Source: Clostridia bacterium (GTDB taxonomy: Bacteria; Bacillota; Clostridia; TANB77; CAG-508). Taken from it: DNA of 64,000 nt. Shown one piece after another: positions 17,358 through 54,015 of the stretch. The stretch is taken from assembly GCA_017410505.1 (NCBI GenBank), contig JAFQQR010000027.1, positions 31,461 through 95,460 on the forward strand, in the 5' to 3' direction. The number at the start of each line of letters is the position of its first letter. The first letter of the stretch is position 1. Both the position numbers and the translations under genes were made by a program. A model generated the notes under the pieces. That model was not told the origin of the DNA, ran no database searches, and worked only from the letters and a program-made list of their open reading frames with translations.

Positions 17358-17604
17358 GTTTTTCTTCCTTTTCTTTCAATGTGCCTCTAATTAGAGGTCT
17401 TATTGTGTTTATCTGTTGCAAATTCCAAATTGGACCTAAAGGTATTATATCACATTTTACATAATTTGGCAACCCTGTTTTTCAATCTCATCAAACTTTA
17501 ATTCTAAAAAAATATGAGTAACATATATTTATATTAAAACAACTATAAATTTGTATGTAAATAAGTAATATCACCTATTTCATACAATAAAATTGGAGGT
17601 TAGA

Positions 17605-18063
17605 ATGAAAAAAATAATTGCAAGTTTATTATTTATAATTATGTCAATTCCAGTATATTCGTTCGGACATGATTCAACTAGCTCATACATATGGTCAACT
17701 GATATAGATTCAATAGCAGTTAATTCTTCAGATATACTTGAAACAAACTCAGAAATTGAAAATAACAACTCCTTAAATTTAGAAAGTGGTTCAGCAATAT
17801 TAATTGAACAATCAACAGGTCAAGTACTTTATTCTCATAACGCACATGAACAATTATGTCCAGCATCAGTAACAAAAATAATGAGTATTCTATTGATAAT
17901 GGAGCAAATTGATAATGGTTCTCTATCTTACTCAGACACTATTAGTTGTTCTGAAACCGCACGTTCTATGGGTGGTTCTCAAATATGGCTAGACCCAAGA
18001 GAAACCTTAACAGTTGATGAAATGCTAAAAGCTATTTGTGTTGTATCAGCAAATGATTGTAAT
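17605..18063 (+). pseudogene. dacF: D-alanyl-D-alanine carboxypeptidase (PBP5/DacF-DacB-like), 5' portion only; interrupted by an inserted element
   Basis: It has a signal peptide, the SxxK active site (PASVTKIM) and the SxN motif region ..AICVVSANDC. After that, the reading frame diverges into element sequence. The ATG at 17605 has a GGAGGT RBS. Confidence 0.8.
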
Positions 18064-18117
18064 GTTCAAAAAAGGCAGGAAAATGAAATTTGTGAACACT
18101 CTACAGAAATAGAGTGT

Positions 18118-19704
18118 TCACTTTTTGCAGGAAACAATTTTAGATGGTTTTTTTTCAAATTTATAATATATATGAATATAATTTTCATACACTTCTATTT
18201 TATCAATCAATTCACTTATGTCTTCATTAGATAGAATATCTTTATTTAGATTTTTTAAGATTTCTTTAACTTTCTTTATTTTCGCTATATTTTCATTACT
18301 ATTCAATTTTTCTTTTTCATTCTCTAAATTTTTTATAATTTCTCTTATGTCTTTTCTTTTTTGAGTTAATTCTTTATATAACTTTTTATAATTTTCTTCT
18401 AAAATGCTTTCTTGTAGTCTATCATTATATAGTTTTGTAATTTTGAATCTTAATAAGCCTAATTCTTTATTTAATTCTTTTAATTGAATATTTATTTTTT
18501 TAACTTCTATATCATTATATTTTTTCATAAGACTCGTATTTAAATTACTCTTTTTTAAGAATTTAGCAAATTCCTTTTCTATATCTTTAATAATTAAACT
18601 TTCTAAATCTTCATATTTATATAAGATATTATTTGAACATAAATATGAAGATTCATTTCTGGAAGGACAATGAACATTTATAAAATTTCTTGACTTTCTT
18701 TTTGCCATCCTTTTTTTACACTTACCACAATACATATATTTGGAAAATTTAGCATCTATCCCTTCTTTTCCACTAGCTGTTTTTCCAAATTTATTGTTAT
18801 CATGAATTTTATTATAAATTTCTTCAGTGATAATAGGTTCATGTGTCTTTTCAGTCGTTATTTGTTCACTTCTTTTTACATAAATTCTTTTTTTACTTTT
18901 ATAACTAATATTTTGTGTTTTTCCTCTCAGACATTTTCCTGTATATACTTCATTAGCTAATATTCTTGTAATTATTGATCTTGTCCAGACTTTTTTTGTC
19001 CTATTTTCTAGTCCTTTTACTTTTAAGTATTCTGCTGGAGTAATAATTTCTTCTTTATTAAATAAATCTGCTATTTGTTTTGCTGTTTTTCCTTCTAATG
19101 TTAATTTAAAAATTCTTTTGACATTTATACTAGCTACTTCGTCTATAATTAATTTTCCTTGATTATCTGGATCTTTCATGTAACCATATGGAGCTACATT
19201 ACAACTATAATATCCATCAAGCATCTTCTTTCTTTTACTTCTTTTGACTCCCTTAGATGTTTCTTTACAAAATAATTCATTAAAAACACCTTTTATTGGT
19301 GCAAATTCATTTGCTATTTTATCTTCAAAATTGTCTACTCCGTCTAAAATAGCAATATATCTAATATTATTGTTAGGAAATAATTTTTCTATATATTCTC
19401 CCGCTTCAATATAATTTCTTGCAAATCTAGCTAAGTTTTTTGTAATTACTAAATCTATTTCATTTATTTTTAATTCTTGAATCATTTTTTTAAAACCTGG
19501 TCTATCAAATGTAGCTCCTGAAACTCCATCATCTACATATTCATAATATTTTTCATAATTAAAATTCTTTTTTATATAGTCGAGGATAATTGCTCTTTGA
19601 TTAGAAATGCTTTCACTTTCTTCAGTATCACCATCATCTTTACTTAGTCTTAAATATATTGCAACATTACGAACTGATGACTTTTCTAGTCTTTGGATTA
19701 TCAT
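18118..19704 (-). CDS. Large serine recombinase (resolvase N-terminal domain plus recombinase, zinc-ribbon and coiled-coil regions)
   Basis: VAIYLRLSKDDGDTEESESISNQR...YVDDGVSGATFDRPGFKKM...VITKNLARFARN is the catalytic serine region. 528 aa. It stops 55 bp from the dac junction. Confidence 0.9.
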   Translation of the reverse strand: MIIQRLEKSSVRNVAIYLRLSKDDGDTEESESISNQRAIILDYIKKNFNYEKYYEYVDDGVSGATFDRPGFKKMIQELKINEIDLVITKNLARFARNYIEAGEYIEKLFPNNNIRYIAILDGVDNFEDKIANEFAPIKGVFNELFCKETSKGVKRSKRKKMLDGYYSCNVAPYGYMKDPDNQGKLIIDEVASINVKRIFKLTLEGKTAKQIADLFNKEEIITPAEYLKVKGLENRTKKVWTRSIITRILANEVYTGKCLRGKTQNISYKSKKRIYVKRSEQITTEKTHEPIITEEIYNKIHDNNKFGKTASGKEGIDAKFSKYMYCGKCKKRMAKRKSRNFINVHCPSRNESSYLCSNNILYKYEDLESLIIKDIEKEFAKFLKKSNLNTSLMKKYNDIEVKKINIQLKELNKELGLLRFKITKLYNDRLQESILEENYKKLYKELTQKRKDIREIIKNLENEKEKLNSNENIAKIKKVKEILKNLNKDILSNEDISELIDKIEVYENYIHIYYKFEKKPSKIVSCKK

Positions 19705-19711
19705 AATTGAA

Positions 19712-21325
19712 CTATCCTCCTATACAATTTAACTCATAAAAATTAAAGTGAATTAGTACATTTTTATCCTTATCTATTTCAATTTTATTAACTAATTGTT
19801 GTACATCTTCTTTTTTTAGCTCATTTTTATTAGCTATCTTTTCAATTACATTTTGTATTTTATCTTCCATTTTTTTATCATCATATTTTTTATCAAATTC
19901 TTTGATTTCTTCTTGTGTAATTTCTTTTAATTTTTCTAGTTTATGTCTTTCTTTTATCATATTTTCTGAAAAACATATATAATCTTGTTCTTCTATTAAT
20001 CCGCCCAATTTATCATTATATAATGTAGAAATCTTTTTGTTTAAAATATTTAATTGAGTATTGATTTGTTCTATCTTTTCTTCTAATTTCCCTTTGTTAT
20101 TTTGAGATTTTATCAAATTCTCTAATAAGTGTTTATTATTAAAAACATTTGACGTTATATATTCTCTAAATATATTTGATATTTTATTTAATATTTTTTC
20201 CTCCAATCTATCATAATTCACATATTGTCTATAACATATTTTGTTAGTTACTTCTCTTGTTGCTGTACTACAAATAATATATCTTCTAATTGTTACTTTA
20301 TCTTTGTATTTGTCTTTCTTTTTAACAATTTGTAGCTTATTCTGACAATGATAACAATATAGTAACGATTTTAGTAATGGATCTTCTTCTTTTATTTTTT
20401 CTCCTATATATTTTTTAAACAAGGATTGAACCATATTCCATGTTTCTATATCAATAATGGCTGGATGATGATTTTCAGTAATAGTATGTTGGCTTTCAGG
20501 TAATGTAATCATTTTCTTGCTTTTATAACTAATCTTTTTTCTTTTATTTTGAACAACTGTACCTATATATATTGGATTTGTTAAAATTCTTTTTATTGTT
20601 GTATGTCTCCAAATATTAGTAGTATTTGTTATATTGTTTACTACTCCTGTCATGTTCATGGATAAACCTGGCGTAACTACTTTTTCTTTGTTTAATAATT
20701 GTGCAATTTGATATGTTCCTTTTCCTCCAATAAACTCTTTAAATATTTTCCTTACTATATCTGCAGTCACTTCATTAATCTTTAGATTCCCTGCTTTATC
20801 TATTTTTGTATATCCAAATGGTGCATAACTTGTATAATAGAAGCCTTCTTGTTTTTTTCTATTTTTAGTTTTTTTTATGTTTTTAGATGTTTCTTTAGCA
20901 TAAAAATCATTCATTATATTTTTAAACGCAACTGTATCACAGTTCTTATCCAAATATGTATCCACATCATCTAATATCGCAATGTAACGAATTTCGTTTT
21001 CTGGAAAAAATGTTTCAATATATCTCCCTGTTTCTATGTAATCTCTTCCTAATCTTGCAAGGTTTTTTGTGATTACCATATTTACTTTTCTAGTTTCTAT
21101 ATCTTTAATCATTCTTTTGAAATTTGGTCTATTAAAATTAGTTCCACTATATCCATCATCAATATATTCATCATAAATGTTGTAATTATTTTCTTTCACA
21201 AATTCTTTTAATATTTTTCTTTGATTCGTTATACTTTCACTTTCCTCCTTATCTCCATCATCTTTACTTAATCTCATGTATAAAGCTACCGTATAACTTT
21301 TATTATCAAAGTTACTCGCTTCCAA
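19712..21325 (-). CDS. Large serine recombinase, second tandem copy
   Basis: VALYMRLSKDDGDKEESESITNQR...YIDDGYSGTNFNRPNFKRM...VITKNLARLGRDY. 537 aa. Confidence 0.9.
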   Translation of the reverse strand: MEASNFDNKSYTVALYMRLSKDDGDKEESESITNQRKILKEFVKENNYNIYDEYIDDGYSGTNFNRPNFKRMIKDIETRKVNMVITKNLARLGRDYIETGRYIETFFPENEIRYIAILDDVDTYLDKNCDTVAFKNIMNDFYAKETSKNIKKTKNRKKQEGFYYTSYAPFGYTKIDKAGNLKINEVTADIVRKIFKEFIGGKGTYQIAQLLNKEKVVTPGLSMNMTGVVNNITNTTNIWRHTTIKRILTNPIYIGTVVQNKRKKISYKSKKMITLPESQHTITENHHPAIIDIETWNMVQSLFKKYIGEKIKEEDPLLKSLLYCYHCQNKLQIVKKKDKYKDKVTIRRYIICSTATREVTNKICYRQYVNYDRLEEKILNKISNIFREYITSNVFNNKHLLENLIKSQNNKGKLEEKIEQINTQLNILNKKISTLYNDKLGGLIEEQDYICFSENMIKERHKLEKLKEITQEEIKEFDKKYDDKKMEDKIQNVIEKIANKNELKKEDVQQLVNKIEIDKDKNVLIHFNFYELNCIGG

Positions 21326-21402
21326 ATTTCCTCCCTTCTTTGTAATTATCTATGCCTAATTATTACTACATTTATTTCTATATTTAAAGTCAAGAAAAAA
21401 CT

Positions 21403-21588
21403 TTAATTAGATTCATTCATTTTTCTTATTATTATGTTTTCAGCAATTGACTGGAAACTTTGTCCATGTTCAGCATAAGTTACAATAATGTTATAATCTT
21501 CTTTCTTCTTGTTTTTTTCTTTTGTTTTAATTATGTTTTCACTTTCTTCCATAGCTTTCACCTCAATTAAATCTATGATTAAAAACAA
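21403..21588 (-). CDS. Small hypothetical protein; candidate recombination directionality factor, speculative
   Basis: 61-aa ORF directly upstream of the recombinases. No motif. Confidence 0.25.
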   Translation of the reverse strand: MFLIIDLIEVKAMEESENIIKTKEKNKKKEDYNIIVTYAEHGQSFQSIAENIIIRKMNESN

Positions 21589-21715
21589 AAGAATATTATA
21601 AAAAAGAAGCTTAGTTTTGTACTAAACCTCTACTATACATTTCCTCCACTCTTTCTTTAACTTTTTCCATCTATATTCTCCTTAATACTCAATATCCTAA
21701 GTTTTATAGATTATT

Positions 21716-22687
21716 TTAATTATCTATGCCATATTGTTTTAATAGCCATTTTAAAGGTTCTTCTCCATCTTTTACTTCCTCTACTCTAGATAATAAATCA
21801 TTATACACATCTTTATTTTTTTTGTATAAATATGTAACCATTAGCTTTCTGTCATCTTTTTTCCCATTATGGATTCTTTTATGACAATTCGGACATAAAT
21901 TAATAATGTTCTTCGGATTATCTATTATTTCCTTTGGAAATTTTTTATCTTTTCTTCCATTACACTGTTCTATCAAATGGTGTGCTTCATAATAATTCAT
22001 TCCATTTTCTTTTTGAAATGTATTATGGTTTGCATCTTTTAAGCCTTTGCAATTTTCTAAAGTACATTTAGACATTTTATTCATATCCTCTGCTAATTGT
22101 TCAAGACTATAATTTTTATATTTTTTCGAATTACAAGCTTTCTCCAAGTCTTCTATTAATTTTCTTTGATAATACTCTTCTAACTTATTATCGTTATTTT
22201 TTTGTAATAAATCTTCTTTTAAATGCTGTTTTCCCTGCAAATTATTTATACCATATTTATTGAATAAAGCTTCTTGTGAAAATTTTTCTTTATCACTATT
22301 TACACATAGTGCATTTTCGAATTTTAGTCTTATTGCTGGAATTTTATCTATTTCTCCTTTTAACATTTTTTCTTCTTCCTCAGGAGTTTCACAGTAAAGA
22401 CAATCTTTCTCTAAGACTCTACATTTAATTAAAATTCTATTAATTCTATCAGGCAAATTCGTGTAATAAATATATACTATATCATCTTCTTCTACTTTTA
22501 AATCTCTTTTTACTTTACCATTTTTCCATAAAATTCCTTCATAATCTTTACCTTTATCTTCATTAAGTAATTTATCAAAATCAAACTCTTCAAAATTACC
22601 TAAAATCAGATGATGTTTATAATGTTCTTTTTTACCTTTTTTTTCAGTTTCGAATTTTGCTTTACTTATTTTTTTTATATCACTCAT
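21716..22687 (-). CDS. HNH endonuclease with a tentative N-terminal PUA/EVE-like domain; candidate modification-dependent (type IV-like) restriction enzyme
   Basis: C-terminal HNH: YEAHHLIEQ...NIINLCPNCHKRIHNG. The N-terminal region GILWKNGKVKRDLKVEEDDIVYIYYTNLPDRINRILIKCRV resembles the PUA/EVE fold pattern. No search was possible. Confidence 0.55.
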   Translation of the reverse strand: MSDIKKISKAKFETEKKGKKEHYKHHLILGNFEEFDFDKLLNEDKGKDYEGILWKNGKVKRDLKVEEDDIVYIYYTNLPDRINRILIKCRVLEKDCLYCETPEEEEKMLKGEIDKIPAIRLKFENALCVNSDKEKFSQEALFNKYGINNLQGKQHLKEDLLQKNNDNKLEEYYQRKLIEDLEKACNSKKYKNYSLEQLAEDMNKMSKCTLENCKGLKDANHNTFQKENGMNYYEAHHLIEQCNGRKDKKFPKEIIDNPKNIINLCPNCHKRIHNGKKDDRKLMVTYLYKKNKDVYNDLLSRVEEVKDGEEPLKWLLKQYGIDN

Positions 22688-22710
22688 AATTATTTCCTTT
22701 AAATTTCATT

Positions 22711-22783
22711 ATTTTAAATATTTATCTCTATTTTAAATATTTATCTCTATTTTAAATATTTATCTCTATTTTAAATATTTATT
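22711..22783. repeat. 19-bp direct tandem repeat ATTTTAAATATTTATCTCT, 3 full copies plus 1 partial, between the WYL gene 3' end and the HNH gene start
   Basis: Read directly from the sequence. The copies are contiguous with no spacers, so this is not CRISPR. Confidence 0.85.
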
Positions 22784-23758
22784 ACTTGCATCCTCTATTA
22801 TTTTAATTATTTCACTTCTTAGATTTATAGGTTTTTTTACTTCTACTAGATCTAAATTTCTCATAGCCCATAGTTTAAATCCAAAAGGATTTACTTTAAG
22901 CTTCATTTTAAAACTATCTTTATTGATTGGTGCTATTTCTACATTTTTGCCAAATTTCTCAATTACTTCTCCTAACAAATATTCATTGCATTCCGCTTCT
23001 ATTTCTACCTCATCACCACTAAATACCTCTACAGATGTATCTGCATATTGTTCTATATCCTTTTCAGATTTACTTATTTTTATTATCTCTGCTAGTTCTT
23101 TTAAATTTTTTATTCTATCTAGTCTATAATGATAAAACTCTTTATTTCCATCTTTTATTGCTAACATGTAGAATTGCTGTTTATCATATATTATAGCATA
23201 AGGAGAAACTACAGGGGTACTTACAATTTGTTTTTCCACTCTATCTCCTACTATGCAGTATTTCCAATATTCAAATTTAACTTTATTTTTATTCATTATG
23301 CTATTTGAAATATCTTCAATGTTTTTTATAACTTCAACATTATTTGTTCTTCCTTTTGGAGAATATACTCTATAATTTTTAATCTTTTCATTTTCATATA
23401 CATTTTGTAAGTTCTTACATTTTCTTATTATTCCTTTGGCCATTCTCTGTTCGATGAATGTAGAATAGCTAAATGTATCAATAATAGCTCTTATCTCTCC
23501 TGGTTCAAAATCTGTTTCTGGATCATTGCTTATGTAATACCCTATTTTGTTATCATTATATGTGCTAATGTCATATCCAAATTTTTGTTGCAAAAGATTA
23601 ATATTTCTTCTTATTGTTCTTGGATCAATATCTTCTCCATATTCTTCTTTGATTTTTTCTTTAAGTTCTGATATTGATAGTTTATGTTCTTCATCACTGT
23701 ATTTTTTTAATACATTTAATATGTATAATATGTTTCCATTTTTTTCGTATAAATCCAT
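22766..23758 (-). CDS. WYL domain-containing transcriptional regulator (HTH-WYL, BrxR/CapW-like)
   Basis: The N-terminal wHTH is YILNVLKKYSDEEHKLSISELKEKIKEEYGEDIDPRTIRRNINLLQ. A central WYL-like region and a C-terminal extension follow. 330 aa. Confidence 0.7.
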   Translation of the reverse strand: MDLYEKNGNILYILNVLKKYSDEEHKLSISELKEKIKEEYGEDIDPRTIRRNINLLQQKFGYDISTYNDNKIGYYISNDPETDFEPGEIRAIIDTFSYSTFIEQRMAKGIIRKCKNLQNVYENEKIKNYRVYSPKGRTNNVEVIKNIEDISNSIMNKNKVKFEYWKYCIVGDRVEKQIVSTPVVSPYAIIYDKQQFYMLAIKDGNKEFYHYRLDRIKNLKELAEIIKISKSEKDIEQYADTSVEVFSGDEVEIEAECNEYLLGEVIEKFGKNVEIAPINKDSFKMKLKVNPFGFKLWAMRNLDLVEVKKPINLRSEIIKIIEDASNKYLK

Positions 23759-23780
23759 ATTTTAATTCTCCTTTGCATTT

Positions 23781-24797
23781 TTAAAATAAATAAAATATTT
23801 TTAACTTTTCTTTAAGTATATTTAAAACTACATTATCAGATTCTTTACTAATAAGAAATTCATATAACTCATTTCTCGCGATTGGAATTATTTTGTTATC
23901 TTTTTCATCTATACATCCATACCCATCTCCTTTCAATCCTGAAAATAAATATATTTTTTCAAATTTATTTTTATCCTTTGCATCATTAAGATAGTCATTA
24001 TACTTAACAATGTTTTTATTTTTCACTTGGCATGTAATGTGTTTATTTGTATCAGTTTTATTAACTAAATCAAATTCATATTTAATTTCATTTTTTTTAC
24101 ATTGTGATGGATATAAAACATAATCTTTATGTTTTTCAATTATATAAGCATATACTAAATCTTCTAAATCAATAGAAGATAATGTACTTGTAAAATTATC
24201 TAAATTTATTTTAATATACGATTTTTTCATTGTATTGTGATATAAATTATATATGAAATGTTTTATTATAGCATTATCATCTGAGTTTGTGGCTATCCTT
24301 TGTATAGTAGAATGTCTTCTTTGTGACATTCTGCCTATAATATGTCCTGGAAGATTATTTTTATTAAATTTTTTCCATTCTTCAACTTTACAATACCAAC
24401 TAAATCTTGAAATAAATTCTATATTACATGGTTCTGCTTTTTCACTTACTTTTCCAATATAATAATTTCCATCTAATAGTCTTGTTATTACATAATCACC
24501 AATTTCTATATTTAGAAAATCTCTTAGTGCAGAATCAGCACTTTTATTAAAAAATTTTTTATATAATTCTCTTATTTTATTTTTATCTTTATTGAGTTTT
24601 ATAAATTCTTTTGCCTTTTTTTGAATATCAAGAAACTTATTATTATCACAATAATTCCATCCCATACCAAATACATTTTGCATATAACATTTTTGTTGAA
24701 ATTCGCTTATTTCATTCATGGATACAGTATTGTTAAATGGTTTTATAAATGTTATCCAATAATTTTTATTTTTATCATAATTTATATTTTCTCTCAT
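23781..24797 (-). CDS. Hypothetical protein with a possible C-terminal PD-(D/E)xK nuclease motif
   Basis: 338 aa. ...EDLVYAYIIEKHKDYVLYP...YEFDLVNK...ITCQVKNK has a D...(E/Q)xK-like arrangement. Weak. Confidence 0.35.
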   Translation of the reverse strand: MRENINYDKNKNYWITFIKPFNNTVSMNEISEFQQKCYMQNVFGMGWNYCDNNKFLDIQKKAKEFIKLNKDKNKIRELYKKFFNKSADSALRDFLNIEIGDYVITRLLDGNYYIGKVSEKAEPCNIEFISRFSWYCKVEEWKKFNKNNLPGHIIGRMSQRRHSTIQRIATNSDDNAIIKHFIYNLYHNTMKKSYIKINLDNFTSTLSSIDLEDLVYAYIIEKHKDYVLYPSQCKKNEIKYEFDLVNKTDTNKHITCQVKNKNIVKYNDYLNDAKDKNKFEKIYLFSGLKGDGYGCIDEKDNKIIPIARNELYEFLISKESDNVVLNILKEKLKIFYLF

Positions 24798-24987
24798 AAT
24801 TTATCTCCTCTTTTTTATTTCAATAATATAATACCTTGCATTTTCTGCATTTTTATTTTCTATATTTTTAGTATTATTGTCATCAAAAATCTTTTTCCAA
24901 ATAGTTCCTTATTTCCATTTATAAATTCCTTAATATATTCTCTTAAATTAAGTTTTTCTTCCATATATATTTCTTCCTTTTCCTTTT

Positions 24988-26505
24988 TTATTTTGCAATC
25001 TCTTTCAATCTCTCCCAAACTTTAACCATAGCATAAGTATCTAACTTGCAATAAACTAACAATCCATTTCTTAGTTGTTCTTGCTCTTCTTTAGATTTTC
25101 CTTTTAAACTCAGAAATGTCTCAGATGCCTCTCCTCCATTATGTACAACTGGCAAATTATTATAGTCAAGTTCTGGATCATTTGGATATAATGCCGGTAA
25201 TACTTTCTTTATTGATGCTGAACCTTGCATTTCTTTCATATAAAACTGTCTCCTTTTGAATGGTGGTAAGAAATCAACCATATTACTATTTATTCTTAAC
25301 AATTCATTTTTCAGATCTGGATATAACTCTGCAAGTTCATTTATTCTTGAATGTTCAAATCCTTTATTATAAACTATAACGCTTCCATTTTCAGGTATGT
25401 CTTTAATCATGTTTTCTGCAAAATGTCTTAGAAAATTTTTATCATCTACCTCTGCTAAAAATTCTTTATGCTGTAGTTCTGCATCTTCTTTTTTAATTAT
25501 ATGAAGTGAATATTGAAAAGGTAGTTGTTGATACGGTTTAGTGTTATCATATTCTGGAATAGCTAATTGAAATGTTTCAAAATCTATGAAATATAAAGGA
25601 TATTTTAGCGAATTTATCAATTCTCTTATAGGTTCAATTTCTATTTTAGGTTCACGATTATTTATTTCAAAATCTATTTGTTCTAAATAAGTTTCATTTA
25701 GATTCTCATGTTGCAAATCTTCAAAAGAAATCTTTCCCTCATAATATTTTTCAAACTTTTTATCTGTATGCATTCCACCTTTTATATCAAATACATTTGG
25801 CTTAGGTAAGTCTTTGGTACAATATTCCCAGTATTCACAACCATACGGTTTTGTACATTGCATACCTATCACTTCTTTTGGTTCATTGTTTTCATCATGT
25901 GTATTCATATATTCATTTATCTGAATAATTCTATCTTTTATTTCTTTTTGTTTTAATACTGCAATTTCAGATATATCTTTAATATTAAATAATTTATCTA
26001 GCTCTAATTCTCCATGCTTTACATATTGATTATTTATATAAACTATACTTACTCTTTTAACAAGATATCCTAGATTACTTAGAACATAATATTGATATGC
26101 TGCATCATCCAAATAAATATCATGTACTTCTGTCGAGCTTTTTACTTCATATATTTCTACACCATCTTCTGTATTTTTCAAAATATCAACACTGCAAAAA
26201 TTATGGTTATATTCAAATGAAGCCTCAGTTATAATATTAGGCACTTTTTTTAGTGCCTCTTTTGTATCTGAAATCATTTTTGATAAATCACTATTAAATT
26301 CAATATTAACATATTCTCCAAATAGTCCTCTAGCTAATTCTCCAACCATAGTTCCGTTCTTAAAAACAGAATCTTTTGCAGATTGTACTTTTTCTTCTTG
26401 TTTATATTTATCCATCCATAATATCTTTTTGCATTGTATTGATTTGCAATATCTTGATTTTGATAAATAAACATTACAAACTATTTTTTCATCAGCCTTA
26501 TCCAT
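24988..26505 (-). CDS. Two-domain nuclease-like protein: N-terminal Cas4/RecB-like PD-(D/E)xK domain with Cys cluster, plus C-terminal DEDD-type 3'-5' exonuclease-like domain (DUF2779-like)
   Basis: The N-terminus is YLSKSRYCKSIQCKKILW. The ExK motif is IYEVKSS. The Cys triad is QCTKPYGCEYWEYC (C-x5-C-x5-C). The C-terminal half carries YFIDFETFQ (Exo I-like D-x-E). Confidence 0.5.
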   Translation of the reverse strand: MDKADEKIVCNVYLSKSRYCKSIQCKKILWMDKYKQEEKVQSAKDSVFKNGTMVGELARGLFGEYVNIEFNSDLSKMISDTKEALKKVPNIITEASFEYNHNFCSVDILKNTEDGVEIYEVKSSTEVHDIYLDDAAYQYYVLSNLGYLVKRVSIVYINNQYVKHGELELDKLFNIKDISEIAVLKQKEIKDRIIQINEYMNTHDENNEPKEVIGMQCTKPYGCEYWEYCTKDLPKPNVFDIKGGMHTDKKFEKYYEGKISFEDLQHENLNETYLEQIDFEINNREPKIEIEPIRELINSLKYPLYFIDFETFQLAIPEYDNTKPYQQLPFQYSLHIIKKEDAELQHKEFLAEVDDKNFLRHFAENMIKDIPENGSVIVYNKGFEHSRINELAELYPDLKNELLRINSNMVDFLPPFKRRQFYMKEMQGSASIKKVLPALYPNDPELDYNNLPVVHNGGEASETFLSLKGKSKEEQEQLRNGLLVYCKLDTYAMVKVWERLKEIAK

Positions 26506-26606
26506 TTATATTACCTCTCTCAAATCATATTAAATATCAAGTATCTTGTAAAGTTGTTTGGTCATATAATGTCTTTACGATTATAATATTATATTTCATC
26601 TTTAGT

Positions 26607-27893
26607 TTAATTTCCTTGATAAGTAAATGTTCCTTCACTTTGTCTATATTGGAATGCATTATTTTTAGTAACATCAAAAGCAGTAAAATCATGTGTATAT
26701 GAATTACTTGGTTCATATGTACTATGATACTTTGTATAAGTGAATTTTATAATCCAAGATTTTGTTGTATCGTAGTCATCTCCGTTTGAAAAATAAACTT
26801 TATATGTCCCCTCAGCTGTATCTGTATATCTTTGATTATATACATTCTTCCAATTGCATATCCATGAGAAAGTTCCATCTTTGTTTATAGTATATGTTCC
26901 TCCTGCAGGAGAATCTTGTTGATCACATACATATTTTCCGTATTTTAGAGTATAATTTCCAACCTTTAATCCTTTAGCAGCTTCCTCCTCTGCCTTTCTT
27001 TTAGCTTCTTCTTCAGCTTTTTTTTGTTCTTCTTCTTGTTTTTTCTTTACTTCTTCTTCAGCTTTTTTAATTTCGTTTTGTTTATCAGTAATTTCTGTTT
27101 CTTTAGTTGCTACTTCTTGTTTTATATTTTCTGTTACTACTTGTTCTTTTGTTTTATAGTCTTTAACCTCTTCAGTTATACTGGCTTTTAACTCTTTGTC
27201 TGATAGATTTTCGTTATATTCCATTGTGTCTATATTTACATCTGTTTTTATAAATACTGTATCGAATTTCGAAATTGATAATTTATTTCCATCTACAGTA
27301 TCAACTGAAATTTCTTCACCTTTCTTAAATGTGTATTCTTTTTGTTCAGTTATTGTATCTTCTGCTTGACTTAAATTTGCTGTGTTTTCACTATTTAACT
27401 CATCACTTTTCATTTTTTCTAATTCTGTTATTCTCTCTGATATTTGTGTCTCTATTGGTTTATATATATCTTCTTCTTGGGTTTGTTTATGTAAATACCA
27501 ATCATATTGTTTTGTCTCAATATTATATAAAAATTCTGCATCTGTTGGTTCTAAGTTTATTATATTATTTACTTCTCCATCATTTATAAAATATATATCT
27601 GAATATTGTTTTTCTTCTTTTTCATATTTTACTATCATTATTGGGTTTTCAACCTCTTCTATATCTACAAATCCTATCTTTGAATTATTTTGAATATTAT
27701 TATTTTCTGAATTTTGAGTAGTATTGCTTTCATTATTTGTTTTTGATTCTTTTAAGAAATTATAATAAGTATTTGCCCATTCCTGTTCTATTGGTTTACT
27801 ATTTTCATAATGTTCATATGCGAAATATCCTCCTACTGATGCTATTATTATTACTACCATAATAAGTATAGCTATTAATATCTTCTTTTTCAC
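26607..27893 (-). CDS. Signal-anchored protein with a K/E-rich coiled-coil segment, hypothetical
   Basis: The N-terminus MKKKILIAILIMVVIIIASVGGYFAY is a TM anchor. The middle region is EEVKKKQEEEQKKAEEEAKRKAEEEAAK. Confidence 0.5.
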   Translation of the reverse strand: MKKKILIAILIMVVIIIASVGGYFAYEHYENSKPIEQEWANTYYNFLKESKTNNESNTTQNSENNNIQNNSKIGFVDIEEVENPIMIVKYEKEEKQYSDIYFINDGEVNNIINLEPTDAEFLYNIETKQYDWYLHKQTQEEDIYKPIETQISERITELEKMKSDELNSENTANLSQAEDTITEQKEYTFKKGEEISVDTVDGNKLSISKFDTVFIKTDVNIDTMEYNENLSDKELKASITEEVKDYKTKEQVVTENIKQEVATKETEITDKQNEIKKAEEEVKKKQEEEQKKAEEEAKRKAEEEAAKGLKVGNYTLKYGKYVCDQQDSPAGGTYTINKDGTFSWICNWKNVYNQRYTDTAEGTYKVYFSNGDDYDTTKSWIIKFTYTKYHSTYEPSNSYTHDFTAFDVTKNNAFQYRQSEGTFTYQGN

Positions 27894-27928
27894 TATTAAC
27901 TCCCCCTTTACATTTTTATTGATTTATA

Positions 27929-28336
27929 CTATTTTAATTTAGTTGCTTTAACGAATACAGGTTTATAACTTTCATAACTTACAGATACTGAATAATACTC
28001 TTCATTTTCTGTATCATAAATTAGTACATATGAAGCACCTACATTGATTAATTGTTCAGAATATCGTAGTGAACCAAACTGACTTTTGGAACTACTTGGA
28101 AGTTCAGTAAATTCTTGTCTAGAAGCATCTATAATTGTATATTTAGTATTATCTTTAAATGCTGATTCGATTGTCCTTACATGATACTCACTTGACTCTT
28201 CTTCTAACTTATCAATAACGGAATTTAATGTTTCTACCACATCTTTTTTCTTATTGATATTTCCACATCTTGTTATAATAAATAACATAACTATTAATAT
28301 TGCTATTATTCCTATTCCTAAAATTTTCTTTTTCAT
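27929..28336 (-). CDS. Small signal-anchored protein, hypothetical
   Basis: MKKKILGIGIIAILIVMLFIITRCG ... 135 aa. Confidence 0.45.
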   Translation of the reverse strand: MKKKILGIGIIAILIVMLFIITRCGNINKKKDVVETLNSVIDKLEEESSEYHVRTIESAFKDNTKYTIIDASRQEFTELPSSSKSQFGSLRYSEQLINVGASYVLIYDTENEEYYSVSVSYESYKPVFVKATKLK

Positions 28337-28396
28337 AAAAATTCCTCCTTAAAAATTTCTATCTGTGTTTTTAATTTCCTACATAATTATAACTAT

Positions 28397-30796
28397 CTAT
28401 TTTACTTTTGTTATATCTTGATAAGAAAAATTAATAACATTGTTAAAATATGCTCTTTCTTGCTCTTCTGTAATATCTGTTTTTTGTCCATTTGCATTCC
28501 AAACCATATGACTATCATATTCATATGTTCCGTCATAAACATTATAAGAACCTCTATCATGTCCTACTACTTTTGATTCTACAAGATTATTATTATTTAA
28601 TTTATAAAATCCATAAATTCCTGTAACAGTATTAGGTCTTGTTTCACTATATACAATTTCTTTTTCATTTTTTTCATAGCGAATTCCTGCATAATTATAT
28701 ATAAGTTTTACTTTAACAACAGTTTTACTCGATTGATTATAAGTATAAATTGCATCTGTTTTCCATTCTTCAGTAACTCCACCTGCTACGCAGTCGATTA
28801 TTAACTCAGGTATTCCATCTTTGTTTATGTCAAAAATACAATAACCCACATTTTGAAGTGTATTACTATTTAATCCTTGTAAATGTTCTTTATAATCATT
28901 TATATATTTTTGTTCTAAAATATATTTTTTATATGCTTTGATTACCTCCGAGTCTGTATCCACAGAAAGACTTCCTACCACGCCATTTTCTGTACCAGTA
29001 TTAACTTGAACATTTGAGTTATTTGAGTTACTTGAGCTACTCGAGTTATTAACAGTAGTACTATTTTGTTGAATATTTTGCTGTGTGTTCGTCGTATCTT
29101 GTTCTTTTTCATCATCTGTCCAATCAACTTCCGATTCAATTTTAAATACTGGATATTTTATTTCCTTTAAATCTACTTTGTACTCTGCTTTAAAAAATAA
29201 AGCATCGACCGAACAATCTAATTTAACTTTCAAATATATTCCTAGTTCAATCTTTGCAGATATACCAGAATCTATATCATTAGTTTCTTTAGTATATTTA
29301 AATTTAGCCGTTGCAAAGTATTCATTATATGCTCCAAATTCTAGCCCTACTCCAGCATGTGCTAAATCTTTATTTATTATACTTATTCCTCCATCTAAAC
29401 CTATTCCTATTTTTATTTCAGCTTTACCTACAACAGAAATTTCTTGTGAAGATGTTGTTTGGCTAGCATTTTGATATGCTTTTTTCTCATTCTTGTTCAT
29501 TACAAAACCTGCATGTTGTACTGTTTCTATTTGTCCTGTATATTTCAAATTTATTTGTAGTGATAATTGCGTTTGAAAATATATATCAAAATAAACATTT
29601 ATTCCTGGAATACCGGTTGGTACTTCAATTGCTCCAATATCTATTGAATTTTCGGAAACATCTGGTACTTCTTTTTGTAATTTTTGTACAATTTCTTGAA
29701 CGGATTTACTATATTCTTCATCACTGATATCTGATATTCCCTTTAAATATTCATTTCCAGATTCTAATTCTACTTCAATTTCAGTTTTTGTTTTTACAGC
29801 CATATCATAGTTCATAGAAAAATCTTTTTCGACATCTACAATATAATCAGTTGAAATTTTATATGATACTTTTATAACTAAATCATGTTGTTTTAGAGAA
29901 TCTAGTCCCAGTTTTTTTTCTCCATCTGCTTTAAATTTTAATTCAATCTCAATTCCTATCTCTTCTCCATCTGTTACTAAAGATATCTTAGGATCTTCTA
30001 CTGCAGCATATACTTCTGTTGCTAAAAATTTATACAGAGCAGATTCTTTTATACTCTTTTCAATTTCTACTTCTGCATTTTCATTTATTTTTAAATTATT
30101 AAAATCAACTTTGCCTTCTTTATATAAGTCCACACTATTATATATTTCCGATAATTCCGGTTTCACAACTGTTGCAATTTCTCCATCTATATTGGATATT
30201 TTATATGCATTATTAATATTATCTCCATCTTTAACCAAAATTACTTGTCCTTCTTTTAAATTTTCATTTTGGATTTTTAATTTTGTTTCATCTTCTATCT
30301 GAATATTTTTATTATCAACAGTAACTACATCATCTGCCATTTTATATTCTGATTTTTGATTTTCCTTAATTTTAAATTCAATCTTTTTAACTTCTTTTAA
30401 AACATCATCTGCAAAATTAGCAGTGTATAACTCTAATTGATATGTTTCACCCTTTGTGTATTTTTTATTTGCCTGTATATATTTCTTTCCATTGTATTCT
30501 ACAATGCTACTTTCAACTGTTTCATTATTGGAATTTGTAAGTTTATATGAATTTAAATCACCACCATCAATTGCGAATTTAATATCAGGTTCAGCCTTAG
30601 GAATATAATATGTTCCATCATCAAAAACAGCATAATATATGGCAGCATTTTGTGCATTATTGGTATTATTTTTACTTTTTAAATAAAAAAATACTCCTGA
30701 AGATGTTCCAATTGCTATAATTATTAAAAATAATATAAAAAATACAATTTTCGTACTTTTCATTTTTGAAATATTTTCTTTTTTCTTATTTTCCAT
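28397..30796 (-). CDS. Large signal-anchored extracytoplasmic protein, hypothetical
   Basis: 799 aa. The N-terminal TM anchor is followed by a long polar domain with an S/N-rich linker. Confidence 0.5.
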   Translation of the reverse strand: MENKKKENISKMKSTKIVFFILFLIIIAIGTSSGVFFYLKSKNNTNNAQNAAIYYAVFDDGTYYIPKAEPDIKFAIDGGDLNSYKLTNSNNETVESSIVEYNGKKYIQANKKYTKGETYQLELYTANFADDVLKEVKKIEFKIKENQKSEYKMADDVVTVDNKNIQIEDETKLKIQNENLKEGQVILVKDGDNINNAYKISNIDGEIATVVKPELSEIYNSVDLYKEGKVDFNNLKINENAEVEIEKSIKESALYKFLATEVYAAVEDPKISLVTDGEEIGIEIELKFKADGEKKLGLDSLKQHDLVIKVSYKISTDYIVDVEKDFSMNYDMAVKTKTEIEVELESGNEYLKGISDISDEEYSKSVQEIVQKLQKEVPDVSENSIDIGAIEVPTGIPGINVYFDIYFQTQLSLQINLKYTGQIETVQHAGFVMNKNEKKAYQNASQTTSSQEISVVGKAEIKIGIGLDGGISIINKDLAHAGVGLEFGAYNEYFATAKFKYTKETNDIDSGISAKIELGIYLKVKLDCSVDALFFKAEYKVDLKEIKYPVFKIESEVDWTDDEKEQDTTNTQQNIQQNSTTVNNSSSSSNSNNSNVQVNTGTENGVVGSLSVDTDSEVIKAYKKYILEQKYINDYKEHLQGLNSNTLQNVGYCIFDINKDGIPELIIDCVAGGVTEEWKTDAIYTYNQSSKTVVKVKLIYNYAGIRYEKNEKEIVYSETRPNTVTGIYGFYKLNNNNLVESKVVGHDRGSYNVYDGTYEYDSHMVWNANGQKTDITEEQERAYFNNVINFSYQDITKVK

Positions 30797-31090
30797 TTTT
30801 AATCTTATTCCTTCCCTGCTTCCGCTACCAATACGCCTATTGAAGTCACAAATCTTTAGTTCACAAAATCACATATAAAATATACATTTTAATTATTAAA
30901 TCTATGAGCAATTATCTCAAAAAAAATTTTATTCTTCGACATTTTCTCTTAAAATTTTCATTTTCAATTATTATATCAAAAAAAATTTTAAATGTATATA
31001 TTTAAAAAATTTATTTATAATTAATTACAACCTTATTATTTATTGCTATTACTATATTTCTTCAATTCCTGTAACTACTGAACGCTCTAA

Positions 31091-31880
31091 GACTGCGTAG
31101 TAGCTATGGCTGAACATATCGCAGGTTCAGAAGAAGCATTTGTTCAAATGATGAATGACAAAGCAAAAGAATTAGGTATGAATGACACGACATTTAAAAA
31201 TTGTCATGGCATCGACGAAGATGGTCATATTACATCTAGCTATGATATTGCTTTAATGTCTCGAGAACTTTTATCAAAACACCCTGATATTACAAAATAC
31301 ACAACAATATGGATGGATAGTTTAAGAGATGGCAAATCACAATTGGTTAATACTAATAAATTAATTAGAACATATAAAGGAATTACAGGATTAAAAACAG
31401 GATCAACTTCACTTGCATTATATAATTTATCAGCAAGTGCCACACGAAATGATTTATCTTTAATTGCAGTAATTATGAAAGCACCCTCTACTAAAGTAAG
31501 ATTTGAAGAAGCACAAAAATTACTCGATTATGGATTTAATAAATTCTCTTTTAAAAGTTTCGGAAATAAAGATGATGTGATTCAAACAGTTTCTGTAAAT
31601 AAAGGTGTAAAAAACAGTGTTGATATCATTTTAGAAGAAAATAGCGGTACTTTAATTGAAAAAGGTAAAGAAAGTCAAATTTCTCAATCTATTGAAATAA
31701 ATGACAATATTGAAGCACCTATAAAAAAAGGTGACAAACTTCGGTCAAGTAACTTTTTATTTAGATAACAGGGAGATTGCAAGCAGCAATTTAGTTGCCT
31801 CTAGTGATATTGATAAAATTAATTTATTTACTATGTCCAAAAGAGTTGTTTATAGTTGGATTGATTTATTACGAAGTTAG
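31091..31880 (+). pseudogene. dacF: D-alanyl-D-alanine carboxypeptidase, 3' portion (continuation of 17605-18063) with an extra +1 frameshift near 31742
   Basis: DCVVAMAEHIAGSEEAFVQMMNDKAKELGMNDTTFKNCHG..LKTGST continues the PBP5 fold. The frame 31106-31768 ends ..KKGDKLRSSNFLFR*. The +1 frame continues GQVTFYLDNREIASSNLVASSDIDKINLFTMSKRVVYSWIDLLRS*, which is the conserved PBP5 C-terminus, ending at 31880. Confidence 0.75.
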
Positions 31881-31916: not shown

Positions 31917-33638
31917 TTATTTTTGTTTCAATCTCAAATATCCCTGCTCTTCCCAACTATTATAAGCTAAGTTTAGCTTAAACAACAATTTAGGTTTAGC
32001 TCCCGCTCTATTTTTATCAACAACACAAGCATAATATCTAACATCAGGGTTACTAGATTTTTCTAAATCAAAAAACTTAGTATCAACTTCATTTAATGAA
32101 AATTCATAATCATCGTAGTTATCCCTACTTATTTGTTTCATTAAACATAATGTATCTAAAACTTCTTTTACTGTTCTACTAACAGCTAAATCGTTTACAT
32201 TTAAATTAATTGGTGATGTCGTGCTTTCTGCTAACTGTAATGTTGAACATATATATATGTTGAAATTTTGTGCTAGGTTTGAAAGTATTGTGGCTGTTTT
32301 CTTTATTTCTTCTGTATTTCCTATGTTTGCTGTGTCTGTTTTTAATGTATCGTAGAATACATATTCTATTTGTTCTTTGTAGTAATAATTTATTATGACT
32401 TTTTTTAGTTCATCATTCGTATGGTCTGTAATATTAATAAAATATATTGAATTCTTTATTTGTTTACTTGCCCATTCAATTGCTTTAATCACTTTATTGT
32501 ATTCTGATGAGTTTTCTGAAATTCTTTTTACAAATTGTCTTTGTGTTTCTCCTTCTTCTTTTAGGATATATCCTTCTTCATCTAGTTTTACACTTTTTTT
32601 GTTATCTGGTTTAAATTTAAATTCTAATAATTCCCCTTCTGATATTTTTACTTTTTGTCCATGTATTTTTTGTATTTCTGGATTATTAAGAATTGTTGTT
32701 ATCAAACATAATTTCATTTTTTCTTCTGACATTTCGTTTGATATTATTAATACCTTCTTTTTATGTACTAGTGCTGTATATGCCGCAATATCTATTGTAA
32801 GTCTACTTTTCCCTGAATTTGATGGCATTGCTATTGCTGTTGTTTCTCCTTTTCTTATTCCTTTAAATACTTCTGTTAATATTGGAAATGGATATTCTAA
32901 TCCATTCGCTAATTCGTTATCTCCACTTTCTAAGAATTCTACAAGATTACTGCTTAATACTGCTTGTTTGAATTTTTGAGTTACTTTTACTTGTTCTATT
33001 GTGCTTTCAACTTCTTCTGTAGACATTTTGTCATATAGTTCATAATTTGTTATTTCAACAATTTTTTCTTGTATATTTTCTTCTGGTGTTTCTAAATATG
33101 CTTTTCTTAGTATAAATAATTTCCTTAATTCACTATAAATTTTTTCTATTTTATAACCTTTGTCTCTTACATCTTTTCTTAGTTTATTTTTTAAATCATA
33201 TACTTTTTCTGAATCTTTTGAAAAGTTAAATTTATTTTTAGCTGGTTCTGATGAATATTTTGATCCTTCATTGTATAATACACTTTTATATATATTTAGC
33301 ATTTCATCATCTTCAAACATACAAATATCAAATAAGAAATAATATTTTGCTATTAATTTTGGATTTTCTAATAACATTCCTATAAAAATATGTTCTAATT
33401 CTATATTACTTAATTGTTTTGGATATGCGCCATCTGCTTCATCTTCTAATTCCATTTCTATATATTCTTCATCTTCATCTTGTTCCTTTTCTTTTGCTTT
33501 TAATTCTCTCATTTTTTTTAGAGCTTCCATATAATTTTCTGTTGCTAATAAATGCTTAATTTCATTTATATATTTTTCGTTCTTTCTTGTTACTTTAATA
33601 CTATTTAATAAATCATATATATTATCCATACTATCCAT
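31917..33638 (-). CDS. DnaB-family replicative helicase-like protein, divergent
   Basis: DnaB N-domain-like IFIGMLLENPKLI...IYKSVL. RecA-fold Walker A AMPSNSGKSRLT. 573 aa, with an acidic insert. Confidence 0.65.
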   Translation of the reverse strand: MDSMDNIYDLLNSIKVTRKNEKYINEIKHLLATENYMEALKKMRELKAKEKEQDEDEEYIEMELEDEADGAYPKQLSNIELEHIFIGMLLENPKLIAKYYFLFDICMFEDDEMLNIYKSVLYNEGSKYSSEPAKNKFNFSKDSEKVYDLKNKLRKDVRDKGYKIEKIYSELRKLFILRKAYLETPEENIQEKIVEITNYELYDKMSTEEVESTIEQVKVTQKFKQAVLSSNLVEFLESGDNELANGLEYPFPILTEVFKGIRKGETTAIAMPSNSGKSRLTIDIAAYTALVHKKKVLIISNEMSEEKMKLCLITTILNNPEIQKIHGQKVKISEGELLEFKFKPDNKKSVKLDEEGYILKEEGETQRQFVKRISENSSEYNKVIKAIEWASKQIKNSIYFINITDHTNDELKKVIINYYYKEQIEYVFYDTLKTDTANIGNTEEIKKTATILSNLAQNFNIYICSTLQLAESTTSPINLNVNDLAVSRTVKEVLDTLCLMKQISRDNYDDYEFSLNEVDTKFFDLEKSSNPDVRYYACVVDKNRAGAKPKLLFKLNLAYNSWEEQGYLRLKQK

Positions 33639-49068: not shown

Positions 49069-49081
49069 AGGAGATTTTATT

Positions 49082-50272: not shown

Positions 50273-50282
50273 GGTGATGTAT

Positions 50283-51377: not shown

Positions 51378-51389
51378 AGAGGTGATTTA

Positions 51390-52145: not shown

Positions 52146-52206
52146 TGAATAAATTAAAAAACTCACACAAAGCATTTAAACATTGCTTTGTGTGAGTTTT
52201 TTATTA

Positions 52207-53292: not shown

Positions 53293-53392
53293 GTTGTACT
53301 CCTCCTAACATTTTTTAGAAAAGCACCCCATTTGCACGACAAATGGGGTGTTGTTTTTGAGTTATCTAGCTATACCGCAATAATGCTATGCA

Positions 53393-53971: not shown

Positions 53972-54015
53972 AATTATTCCTCCTGTTTGATAAAATCTTT
54001 GTTTATTGTGTTCAG

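Follow-up and report, generated by a model that had tools for sequence, protein, structure and literature searches.

A split DD-carboxypeptidase gene

The 64,000-nucleotide stretch analyzed here (the window) belongs to a deposited 181-kb NCBI contig of a metagenome-assembled genome (MAG) of a Clostridia bacterium and contains a PBP5-type DD-carboxypeptidase gene, hereafter dac, the two halves of which are precisely separated by an insert. The gene starts at ATG 17605, with a GGAGG ribosome-binding site ahead of it, and its reading frame reaches ...KAICVVSANDC at 18060, that is, 152 codons; a preliminary description of this DNA had the correct end point but counted 153 codons. Past 18060, the frame enters foreign sequence (58 unrelated codons, with a stop at 18234), and it picks up again at 31091 with DCVVAMAEHIAGSEEAF.... 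The two parts are:

17605..18056, plus strand: dac 5' part, codons 1-151, with the signal peptide, the SVTK active-site motif, and SAN of the SxN motif
31093..31880, plus strand: dac 3' part, codon 152 to the end, with the KTG motif and the PBP5_C domain, and with a +1 frameshift at C 31742

The junctions carry the hexamers GATTGT (18055-18060, left) and GACTGC (31091-31096, right). When joined in silico, the halves restore a single open reading frame (ORF) for a protein of 412 amino acids (aa), which matches Pfam PBP5_C and, in one stretch over the junction, positions 8-238 of the 239 positions of Peptidase_S11 (E 2e-70). The sequence and its translations bear out the preliminary description in that the frame resumes at 31091, that both junctions carry a GAYTGY hexamer, and that the joined flanks rebuild the SxN region; the product is a single Peptidase_S11+PBP5_C protein that aligns with 80 orthologs without gaps. 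The split gene retains all catalytic motifs and has one private substitution at otherwise invariant columns among 318 core residues, the close intact orthologs having 0-4. Judged by its sequence, split dac is free of signs of decay.

Uninterrupted orthologs and the identity of dac

The 80 orthologs (60-87% identity) were fetched from genome contigs of gut or rumen MAGs labeled uncultured Clostridium or Clostridia. Every one is uninterrupted, and all 80 loci cross the predicted junction without an indel (...TCWGCWAATGAY TGYGTWGT...). At the closest of these loci (L009, L004, L010, L026, and L002; L numbers denote loci), the joined flanks are collinear over >10 kb, with the upstream genes, a DnaB-like gene, and ValRS (valS) kept in order. 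Related genomes with an uninterrupted gene at the predicted junction, which the preliminary description had suggested looking for, are thus at hand, the closest ones being syntenic. It had also raised the possibility that the two fragments come from different paralogs. This is not so: L010 is the closest or nearly the closest ortholog for both halves, and the fragments are therefore halves of one ortholog. Even the nearest intact Dac proteins reach no more than 90-91% identity and hence come from other species.

The label "dacF/dacB-like" in the preliminary description is not supported by homology. The best matches are generic PBP5/DacA/DacC-type enzymes, with an E-value of 2e-52 for generic PBP5-type chains vs 2e-36 for Bacillus subtilis DacB (3mfd), membership being judged on DacB only, with no DacF sequence in the comparison. 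Among NCBIfam models, DacD, DacA, and PBP3 were matched far below their cut-offs, and no DacB or DacF operon context (spmAB and spoIIA, respectively) was found around dac.

Organization of the element

With the crossover set at the GA of an Asp codon (see below), the element is 13,036 bp long. All of its genes lie on the minus strand, and its G+C content is 24-26%, vs 27-30% in the flanks. Reading on this strand from attR, the order is the 799-, 135-, and 428-aa ORFs, DUF2779, PDC-S02, WYL, HNH, a terminator, the 49-aa ORF, and recombinases A and B:

18118..19704, minus strand: large serine recombinase B, 528 aa (Pfam Resolvase+Recombinase+Zn_ribbon_recom; PHROG integrase, E 2e-87)
19712..21325, minus strand: large serine recombinase A, 537 aa (Pfam Resolvase+Recombinase+Zn_ribbon_recom), ahead of B in every related element
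21403..21552, minus strand: conserved 49-aa ORF (..NIIVTYAEHGQSFQSIAENIIIRKMNE..) upstream of recombinase A, a candidate recombination directionality factor
21716-22687, minus strand: HNH endonuclease, weakly similar to type IV restriction enzymes
22766-23758, minus strand: WYL-domain regulator
23781-24797, minus strand: protein of the PADLOC candidate defense family PDC-S02 (E 3e-35)
24988-26505, minus strand: DUF2779 protein
26607..30796, minus strand: three cargo ORFs (428, 135, and 799 aa), each with an N-terminal hydrophobic segment
18092..18121, no strand: perfect 12-13-bp inverted repeat GTGAACACTCTA-n6-TAGAGTGTTCAC, overlapping the recombinase B stop codon

Both recombinases contain the domain set of large serine recombinases (PF00239+PF07508+PF13408), lie within the size range of such enzymes (about 450-700 aa), and are 36% identical to one another; the catalytic Y17/R19/S21 of recombinase B are invariant among 16 homologs. 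The tandem pair lies where the preliminary description had put two large serine recombinases, recombinase B ending 58 bp inside the left junction. Each related element has an ORF of 47-51 aa at the equivalent place ahead of recombinase A, with a conserved sequence in the seven elements in which it was read; the 49-aa ORF has no match in NCBIfam, PHROGs, or PADLOC. The cargo between 21716 and 26505 is defense-like, as judged from these similarities, and the 428-, 135-, and 799-aa ORFs are without a family match in the Pfam, PHROGs, and PADLOC scans.

The PHROGs scan of the element matched nothing beyond the two integrases and three families without known function, so the element is not a prophage; no phage structural, packaging, lysis, or replication genes were found in it. 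Conjugation and mobilization genes are likewise absent from the Pfam and PHROGs scans, and a single-protein scan of IMG/VR retrieved no close relatives of the recombinase. The insert is best explained as a non-phage integrative element inserted by site-specific recombination, catalyzed by large serine recombinases, into the Asp codon after the SxN motif of a PBP5-type DD-carboxypeptidase gene.

The inverted repeat at 18092-18121, with arms similar to the att half-site TGAACrCTCTA, was scored as a bidirectional terminator-like hairpin. In relatives with the opposite orientation (L090, L092, and L257), its counterpart forms the actual dac junction; the repeat may be a relic or a secondary attP. 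Elsewhere in the element, the 19-bp unit ATTTTAAATATTTATCTCT is tandemly repeated about 3.7 times at 22711-22788; the array, which resembles one of iterons or operators, extends from the 3' end of the WYL-regulator gene into the spacer that separates this gene from the HNH gene.

Attachment sites and the proposed crossover point

The attachment sites at the two ends of the element were delineated as follows:

18040..18085, plus strand: attL, with the dac half-site ...GTATCAGCAAAT, the proposed crossover GA at 18055-18056, and the element half-site TTGTAATGTTCAAAAAAGGCAGG
31065..31115, plus strand: attR, with the element half-site ACTGAACGCTCTAA, the proposed crossover GA at 31091-31092, and the dac half-site CTGCGTAGTAGCTATGG

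The half-site GTnCAAAAAAAGSCA is also present at the dac 5'-part junction of L257 and in an attP-like site of L093, and junctions related to attR were seen in L090, L092, L255, and L257. The attP reconstructed for the window, TGAACGCTCTAA-GA-TTGTAATGTTCA, is quasi-palindromic, with arms matching at 8 of 12 positions; its ends, TGAAC/GTTCA, are 16 nt apart and centered on GA. The attL and attR of L257 have a 13-bp core, ATGATTGTACTGT, in common; the attP reconstructed for this locus has arms that match perfectly (TTGTACAG and CTGTACAA), lie 12 nt apart, and are again centered on GA, as is the intact attP-like site of L093. Because the attP arms of the window, L257, and L093 all center there, the crossover is more likely to be the GA of the Asp codon than the TG shared by the two junctions. 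The latter had been chosen in the preliminary description and was rejected on these grounds; the rebuilt protein that it had given, ...SANDCVVAMAEH, stands, as TG and GA yield the same one.

The predicted attB in dac is GCAAAT-GA-CTGCGTAG. Upon excision, the junction sequences are predicted to be GTTGTATCAGCAAATGACTGCGTAGTAGCTATGG (or ...AATGATTGCGTAG...) for attB and CTACTGAACGCTCTAAGATTGTAATGTTCAAAAAAGGCAGG (or ...AAGACTGTAATG...) for attP.

A family of elements dedicated to the dac site

Recombinase B has many homologs in public assemblies. We looked up the genomic context of nine, spanning 100, 86, 68, 67, 50, 47, and 44% identity. All nine are the second of two recombinase genes that adjoin or overlap, all nine pairs have a 47-51-aa ORF ahead of them, and all nine directly adjoin a Peptidase_S11 fragment. 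As located by tblastn, these dac fragments end or begin at residue 151 of the query, that is, at the same site. Among 160 control loci around more distant recombinases (29-38% identity), none has a dac fragment within 10 kb. These distant relatives were obtained from recombinase-alignment scans of metagenome contigs and IMG/VR, for which the patterns chosen were generic catalytic motifs only; since the scans returned nothing closer, the loci serve as a negative control rather than as a family census.

The host flanks vary among the elements (VanW/L31/MiaB/MutS; VanW/MetK; VanW/PolA; AsnA/AspRS/PolC; and others), and so does the cargo from one member to another. A complete minimal relative of about 6 kb lies between both dac halves in L257 and consists of a 159-aa ORF, an ECF-like sigma factor, a 307-aa ORF, the small ORF, and the recombinase pair. 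The element in the window is one member of a diversified family, all members of which occupy this dac site with different cargo.

Across the relatives, the recombinase module is found beside either the 5' or the 3' dac fragment, and some loci contain repeated or relic half-sites. The occurrence of both orientations together with relic half-sites points to repeated insertions at a hot spot, with rearrangement of the module relative to attP. Identical copies of one recombinase, P0042, adjoin the 3' dac fragment in L092 and, in L093, the intact attP-like site, which is followed about 130 bp on by the 5' dac fragment. The half-site TTTTCCTGyyGTTTTTGAACA is present in repeated copies in L084 (11600-11730) and L088 (11600-11790). 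These arrangements point to insertions in series, to relics, or to a pair of usable attP sites that are oppositely oriented.

The related elements of L084 (2094-4542) and L257 (6538-7948) encode an ECF-like sigma factor and, next after it, a protein of about 300 aa; the two sigma factors are 66% identical. L084 additionally encodes, upstream of the recombinases and apparently within the element, a 229-aa response regulator with a Spo0A_C domain. Such sigma factors and the Spo0A_C regulator could interfere with sporulation control in the host.

Predicted sporulation-type promoters of the small ORF and of dac

Two promoter-like motifs were identified, one in the element and one upstream of dac:

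21570..21598, minus strand: predicted sigma-E-type promoter TAATATT-N14-CATAGATT of the small ORF, with a terminator ahead of it at 21631-21605
17502..17529, plus strand: promoter-like motif TTCTAAA-N13-CATATATT of dac, sigma-E/K type, conserved in orthologs

In all seven elements examined, [TG][ACT]ATA-N13/14-CATA occurs directly after a terminator, and the small ORF starts 43-50 nt further on. The chance expectation of this pattern is 0.014 per 70 nt, given the background frequency in the window. The boxes and their spacing are kept in seven of seven elements and the spacer sequences have diverged. The relatives include motifs with 14-nt spacing (TAATATT-14-CATAGAGT, TAATATT-14-CATAAACT, and TTATAAA-14-CATAGAAA) and with 13-nt spacing (GAATAAA-13-CATAGTAA and TCATAAA-13-CATAATAA). 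The B. subtilis sigma-E consensus is ZHATAXX-14-CATACAHT. In Clostridioides difficile, sigma-E promoters are marked by ATA in the -35 element, with a -10 element common to sigma-E and sigma-K (PMC3789822). The small-ORF motif, as a predicted promoter, matches the sigma-E type in both respects. A similar motif, GAATAAA-15-CATAAATT, is found in L257 upstream of spoIVA, a classic sigma-E gene.

Upstream of dac, TTCTAAA-N13/14-CATATAtT was detected in 15 of 29 ortholog upstream regions (0.002 expected per 130 nt), and the more distant orthologs in L035, L040, and L041 have GAATATT-N14-CATATATT. The dacB gene of B. subtilis belongs to the sigma-E regulon. Another candidate dac promoter, a perfect CATACAAT at 17581-17588, was rejected, being not conserved in orthologs and implying a transcription start inside the Shine-Dalgarno sequence. 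A scan for the sigma-70 consensus was uninformative in this A+T-rich DNA (127 sites vs 111 expected).

A candidate programmed frameshift and other features of the locus

The 3' part of dac contains an extra C at 31742 (...AAAGGTGACAAA CTT C GGT CAA...), which escaped the preliminary description. A stop closes the 0 frame at 31768; the last 40 codons, which encode the C-terminal tail ...FTMSKRVVYSWIDLLRS, a conserved feature, are in the +1 frame and end with the stop codon at 31878-31880. The shift cassette is AAAGGTGACAAACTT-C-GGT. Five uninterrupted orthologs (L010, L011, L012, L013, and L026) have the same extra C in the context xTT-C-GG, and in three others (L058, L064, and L065), an extra C is located about ten codons further downstream, ahead of GG, in the context AAT-C-GG. 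The downstream frame is conserved in all eight frameshifted orthologs, and several truncated products of 371-382 aa in the protein database reflect the same shift. Because it occurs in uninterrupted orthologs, the frameshift predates the insertion and is unrelated to the element; decay of dac, which the shift had suggested, was rejected for the same reason. CGG is a rare codon in the window (19 of 17,886), and a Shine-Dalgarno-like AAAGGTGA lies 4 nt upstream of the shift site. For comparison, the yeast Ty1 shift site is CUU-AGG-C, and prfB has a Shine-Dalgarno-like upstream element. The site is a candidate for Ty1- or prfB-type programmed +1 ribosomal frameshifting, from which Dac isoforms with and without an anchor may result.

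Convergent with dac, a 573-aa protein is encoded at 31917-33638 that partially matches DnaB_C/AAA_25 (residues 243-316 only). It is syntenic in the orthologous loci and may be an atypical helicase or a KaiC-like ATPase. Further away, a stress gene cluster of the tellurite-resistance type occupies 48013-54582 of the window and comprises genes for a C-C bond lyase, PRTase_2/TRSP, StiP/PELOTA, an HAD phosphatase, TelA, and two TerD proteins. Many of the rare in-frame CGG codons of the window are located in this cluster, suggestive of horizontal origin.

Developmental excision and the alternatives

The confinement of the family to a single site, together with the sporulation-type promoter, suggests that these elements are cut out during spore formation and that the gene is thereby rebuilt. 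Under such a scheme, the recombinase pair would join the quasi-palindromic attP to attB in dac, crossing at the central GA. During sporulation, the mother-cell RNA polymerase with sigma-E would transcribe the small ORF, the product of which, acting as a directionality factor, would turn the recombinases to excision. The element would then exit as a circle, and dac would be rebuilt in the mother-cell chromosome only, to be expressed from its own sigma-E-type promoter and to trim spore-cortex peptidoglycan in the way B. subtilis DacB does. The forespore would retain the element and thus pass it on vertically through the spore; in vegetative cells, the gain for the host would lie in the cargo, which is defense-like here and includes sigma factors in relatives. 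We give developmental excision that rebuilds dac about the same chance of being right as of being wrong.

In L257, gerAA, gerAB, gerAC, and spoIVA lie within 8 kb of split dac. Immediately beside dac, a gene for a 140-aa SleB/CwlJ-type hydrolase (Pfam Hydrolase_2) is found in an intact ortholog (L014, 1509-1928) and in a split-dac relative (L088, 14764-15186), so that spore-cortex lytic and cortex-trimming functions are adjacent in both loci. The preliminary description had presented the element as skin-like. In favor of this stand a family dedicated to the site (9 of 9 vs 0 of 160), the sporulation genes in hosts of relatives, the sigma-E-type promoter in seven of seven elements, and a dac promoter of the same type; what speaks against it is that no same-strain empty site, attP junction, or reconstituted protein was found in the collections searched.

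Several observations weigh against developmental excision. All six contigs of the same strain are occupied, with no empty site among them, and look-ups via the 236-aa flank protein and via ORF799 (799 aa) revealed only the integrated form. The exact reconstituted Dac is absent from a collection of 15 billion proteins, and an exact-pattern search of IMG/VR for the predicted attP gave 0 matches. There is no sporulation gene within the window, so sporulation of this host is deduced from relatives; a literature search on sporulation in TANB77 yielded nothing usable. By homology, dac is no nearer to DacB than to vegetative PBP5-type enzymes. The -35 box of its promoter in the subclade of the window is TTCTAAA, with CTA replacing ATA, and consensus-based promoter calls in DNA of 28% G+C are weak for any single site. 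Size, position, and conservation are what mark the 49-aa ORF as a candidate directionality factor. Defense-type cargo and relic half-sites would also be expected of an ordinary mobile island at a hot spot. The two Logan contigs break off at 31150, a position 57 bp beyond the junction; this was discarded as a sign of excision, being the wrong place for an attB/attR branch point at k=31.

Such an island, that is, a site-specific integrative and mobilizable defense element for which dac is merely the attachment site, would have knocked out a dispensable or redundant carboxypeptidase and would excise only for horizontal transfer. It would account for the HNH, WYL, PDC-S02, and DUF2779 cargo and its turnover between family members, for the insertions in both orientations with their relics, and for the failure to find an excision product in the same-strain contigs, the IMG/VR attP search, the protein collection, and the ORF799 look-up; moreover, large serine recombinases commonly target conserved coding sequences. 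However, a sigma-E-type promoter ahead of the recombination module in seven of seven elements has no obvious role in an element made only for transfer, and the element is devoid of conjugation and mobilization genes. Breaking a catalytic motif carries a cost, except where the gene is dispensable or restored; constraint on split dac is not relaxed, and dac with its own sporulation-type promoter is conserved across the clade. On balance, an ordinary island appears unlikely, albeit well short of negligible.

Quite improbable, in our view, is a reversible switch that operates outside sporulation, in the manner of active lysogeny, of which phage phi10403S in comK of Listeria is an example. Here, transient excision in vegetative cells would toggle dac and thereby alter cell-wall cross-linking or beta-lactam tolerance. 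The closeness of dac to general PBP5-type enzymes rather than DacB fits this possibility, as do the WYL-type regulator in the element and the sigma factors and Spo0A_C response regulator of relatives, which might provide control of their own. Against it, the promoters preceding the recombination module and dac fit the mother-cell sigma type, not sigma-A, and it is the promoter, not the regulator cargo, that is conserved across the family.

It is more improbable still that the element is an immobile remnant and dac a pseudogene heading for loss, as the +1 frameshift and the failure to see a same-strain empty site might indicate: uninterrupted orthologs of at least five other species share the frameshift with a conserved downstream +1 frame, neither recombinase gene is disrupted, nor is the small ORF, and split dac has no excess of private substitutions. 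An artifact of assembly or binning that joined unrelated contigs inside dac, conceivable for a MAG, is effectively refuted, since the junctions are identical in six of six independent contigs that encode an identical flank protein or an identical recombinase (assemblies from ENA and Logan, several samples and different assemblers), which rules out misassembly, and the same architecture recurs in eight other related elements.

Developmental excision in the broader form can be put as follows: a large, previously undescribed family in uncultured gut and rumen Clostridia would use tandem serine recombinases dedicated to a site in a cortex-type DD-carboxypeptidase gene, would be excised in the mother cell under sigma-E control by means of the 49-aa factor, and would park defense systems and accessory sigma factors in a sporulation gene. 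To this composite, we assign slightly less than an even chance.

Significance and relation to known systems

To our knowledge, developmentally programmed rearrangement in spore-formers is known for only a few genes (sigK, spsM, spoVFB, spoVR, gerE, and yabG), all in cultured Bacillus or Clostridium. If the scheme above is correct, a peptidoglycan-maturation enzyme would join this short list as a new class of target, with a conserved two-recombinase module that includes a candidate 49-aa directionality factor, and with a family of interchangeable cargo (defense genes, sigma factors, and a Spo0A-like regulator) in uncultured gut and rumen Clostridia. The elements would ride the spore germ line without cost to spore quality, making a concrete case for why mobile elements favor mother-cell genes, and such rearrangement would be common among the uncultured majority of gut spore-formers. 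For genome engineering, the family would be of use as a source of naturally occurring attB/attP pairs and of orthogonal serine integrases whose crossover is defined to 2 bp. Even without developmental excision, a family of islands that reliably breaks the active-site motif of a conserved penicillin-binding protein is worthy of note.

The closest described system is gin, which interrupts gerE in Bacillus cereus ATCC 10987, is non-phage, encodes three serine recombinases (GirC, with the 42-aa directionality factor GirX, and those of the tandem girA/girB genes), and recombines at a central dinucleotide within imperfect inverted repeats (PMC5595907). Next in closeness are skin, SP-beta, and the group of vfbin, vrin, and yin. 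The dac element resembles gin in being non-phage, in interrupting a coding sequence, and in containing several large serine recombinase genes with an adjoining very small ORF; a central-dinucleotide crossover, too, is deduced for it. It differs in its target, a DD-carboxypeptidase gene, and in its hosts, uncultured gut Clostridia. Whereas girAB are dispensable in gin and the third recombinase, GirC, acts, the recombinases of the dac elements are conserved as an adjacent pair in every member. Excision of the dac element is a prediction from sequence.

With skin in sigK (SpoIVCA in B. subtilis; CD1231 and CD1234 in C. difficile), the dac element shares a split gene and a large serine recombinase gene at one end. 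The C. difficile skin directionality factor, CD1234, is sigma-E-dependent, and the promoter arrangement of the small ORF in the dac element matches this logic. In that species, the directionality factor confines excision to the mother cell and controls the activation of sigma-K, which is cell type-specific (PMC5025042). Unlike the dac element, skin is phage-derived, has a single recombinase, and targets a sigma factor that gates the cascade, rather than a peptidoglycan-maturation enzyme.

SP-beta in spsM employs SprA and SprB, and the sporulation-specific promoter of the directionality factor triggers the excision that rebuilds the gene (PMC4191935, PMC5499854). The combination of a serine integrase with a small candidate factor under a sporulation-type promoter ahead of the recombinases is similar in the dac element, which has no phage genes, unlike SP-beta, a functional 134-kb phage. 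Other intervening elements, namely, yin in yabG of Clostridium botulinum (PMC10747680) and vfbin in spoVFB and vrin in spoVR (PMC4191935), are all located in sporulation genes of spore-formers and excise as circles. Like them, the dac element interrupts a host gene; unlike them, it is not prophage-like and has a different target.

In having two adjacent paralogous large serine recombinases and one chromosomal site, the dac element is also reminiscent of SCCmec with CcrA/CcrB. CcrB is the best NCBIfam match of both recombinases. Nevertheless, they score 88 and 112 bits, compared with a CcrB cut-off of 900 (equivalog cut-offs are 700-900), and thus are not Ccr proteins; the nearest NCBIfam recombinase models, CcrB and XisF, are both matched only far below cut-offs. 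SCC, which inserts into the 3' end of rlmH and leaves that gene functional, is not known to have a developmental role.

Neither the papers on intervening elements consulted here nor targeted literature searches yielded a case of dac as a target. The distinctive features of the dac element are its target, the strictly conserved tandem recombinase pair with the small ORF, and the large family with swappable cargo in uncultured gut Clostridia.

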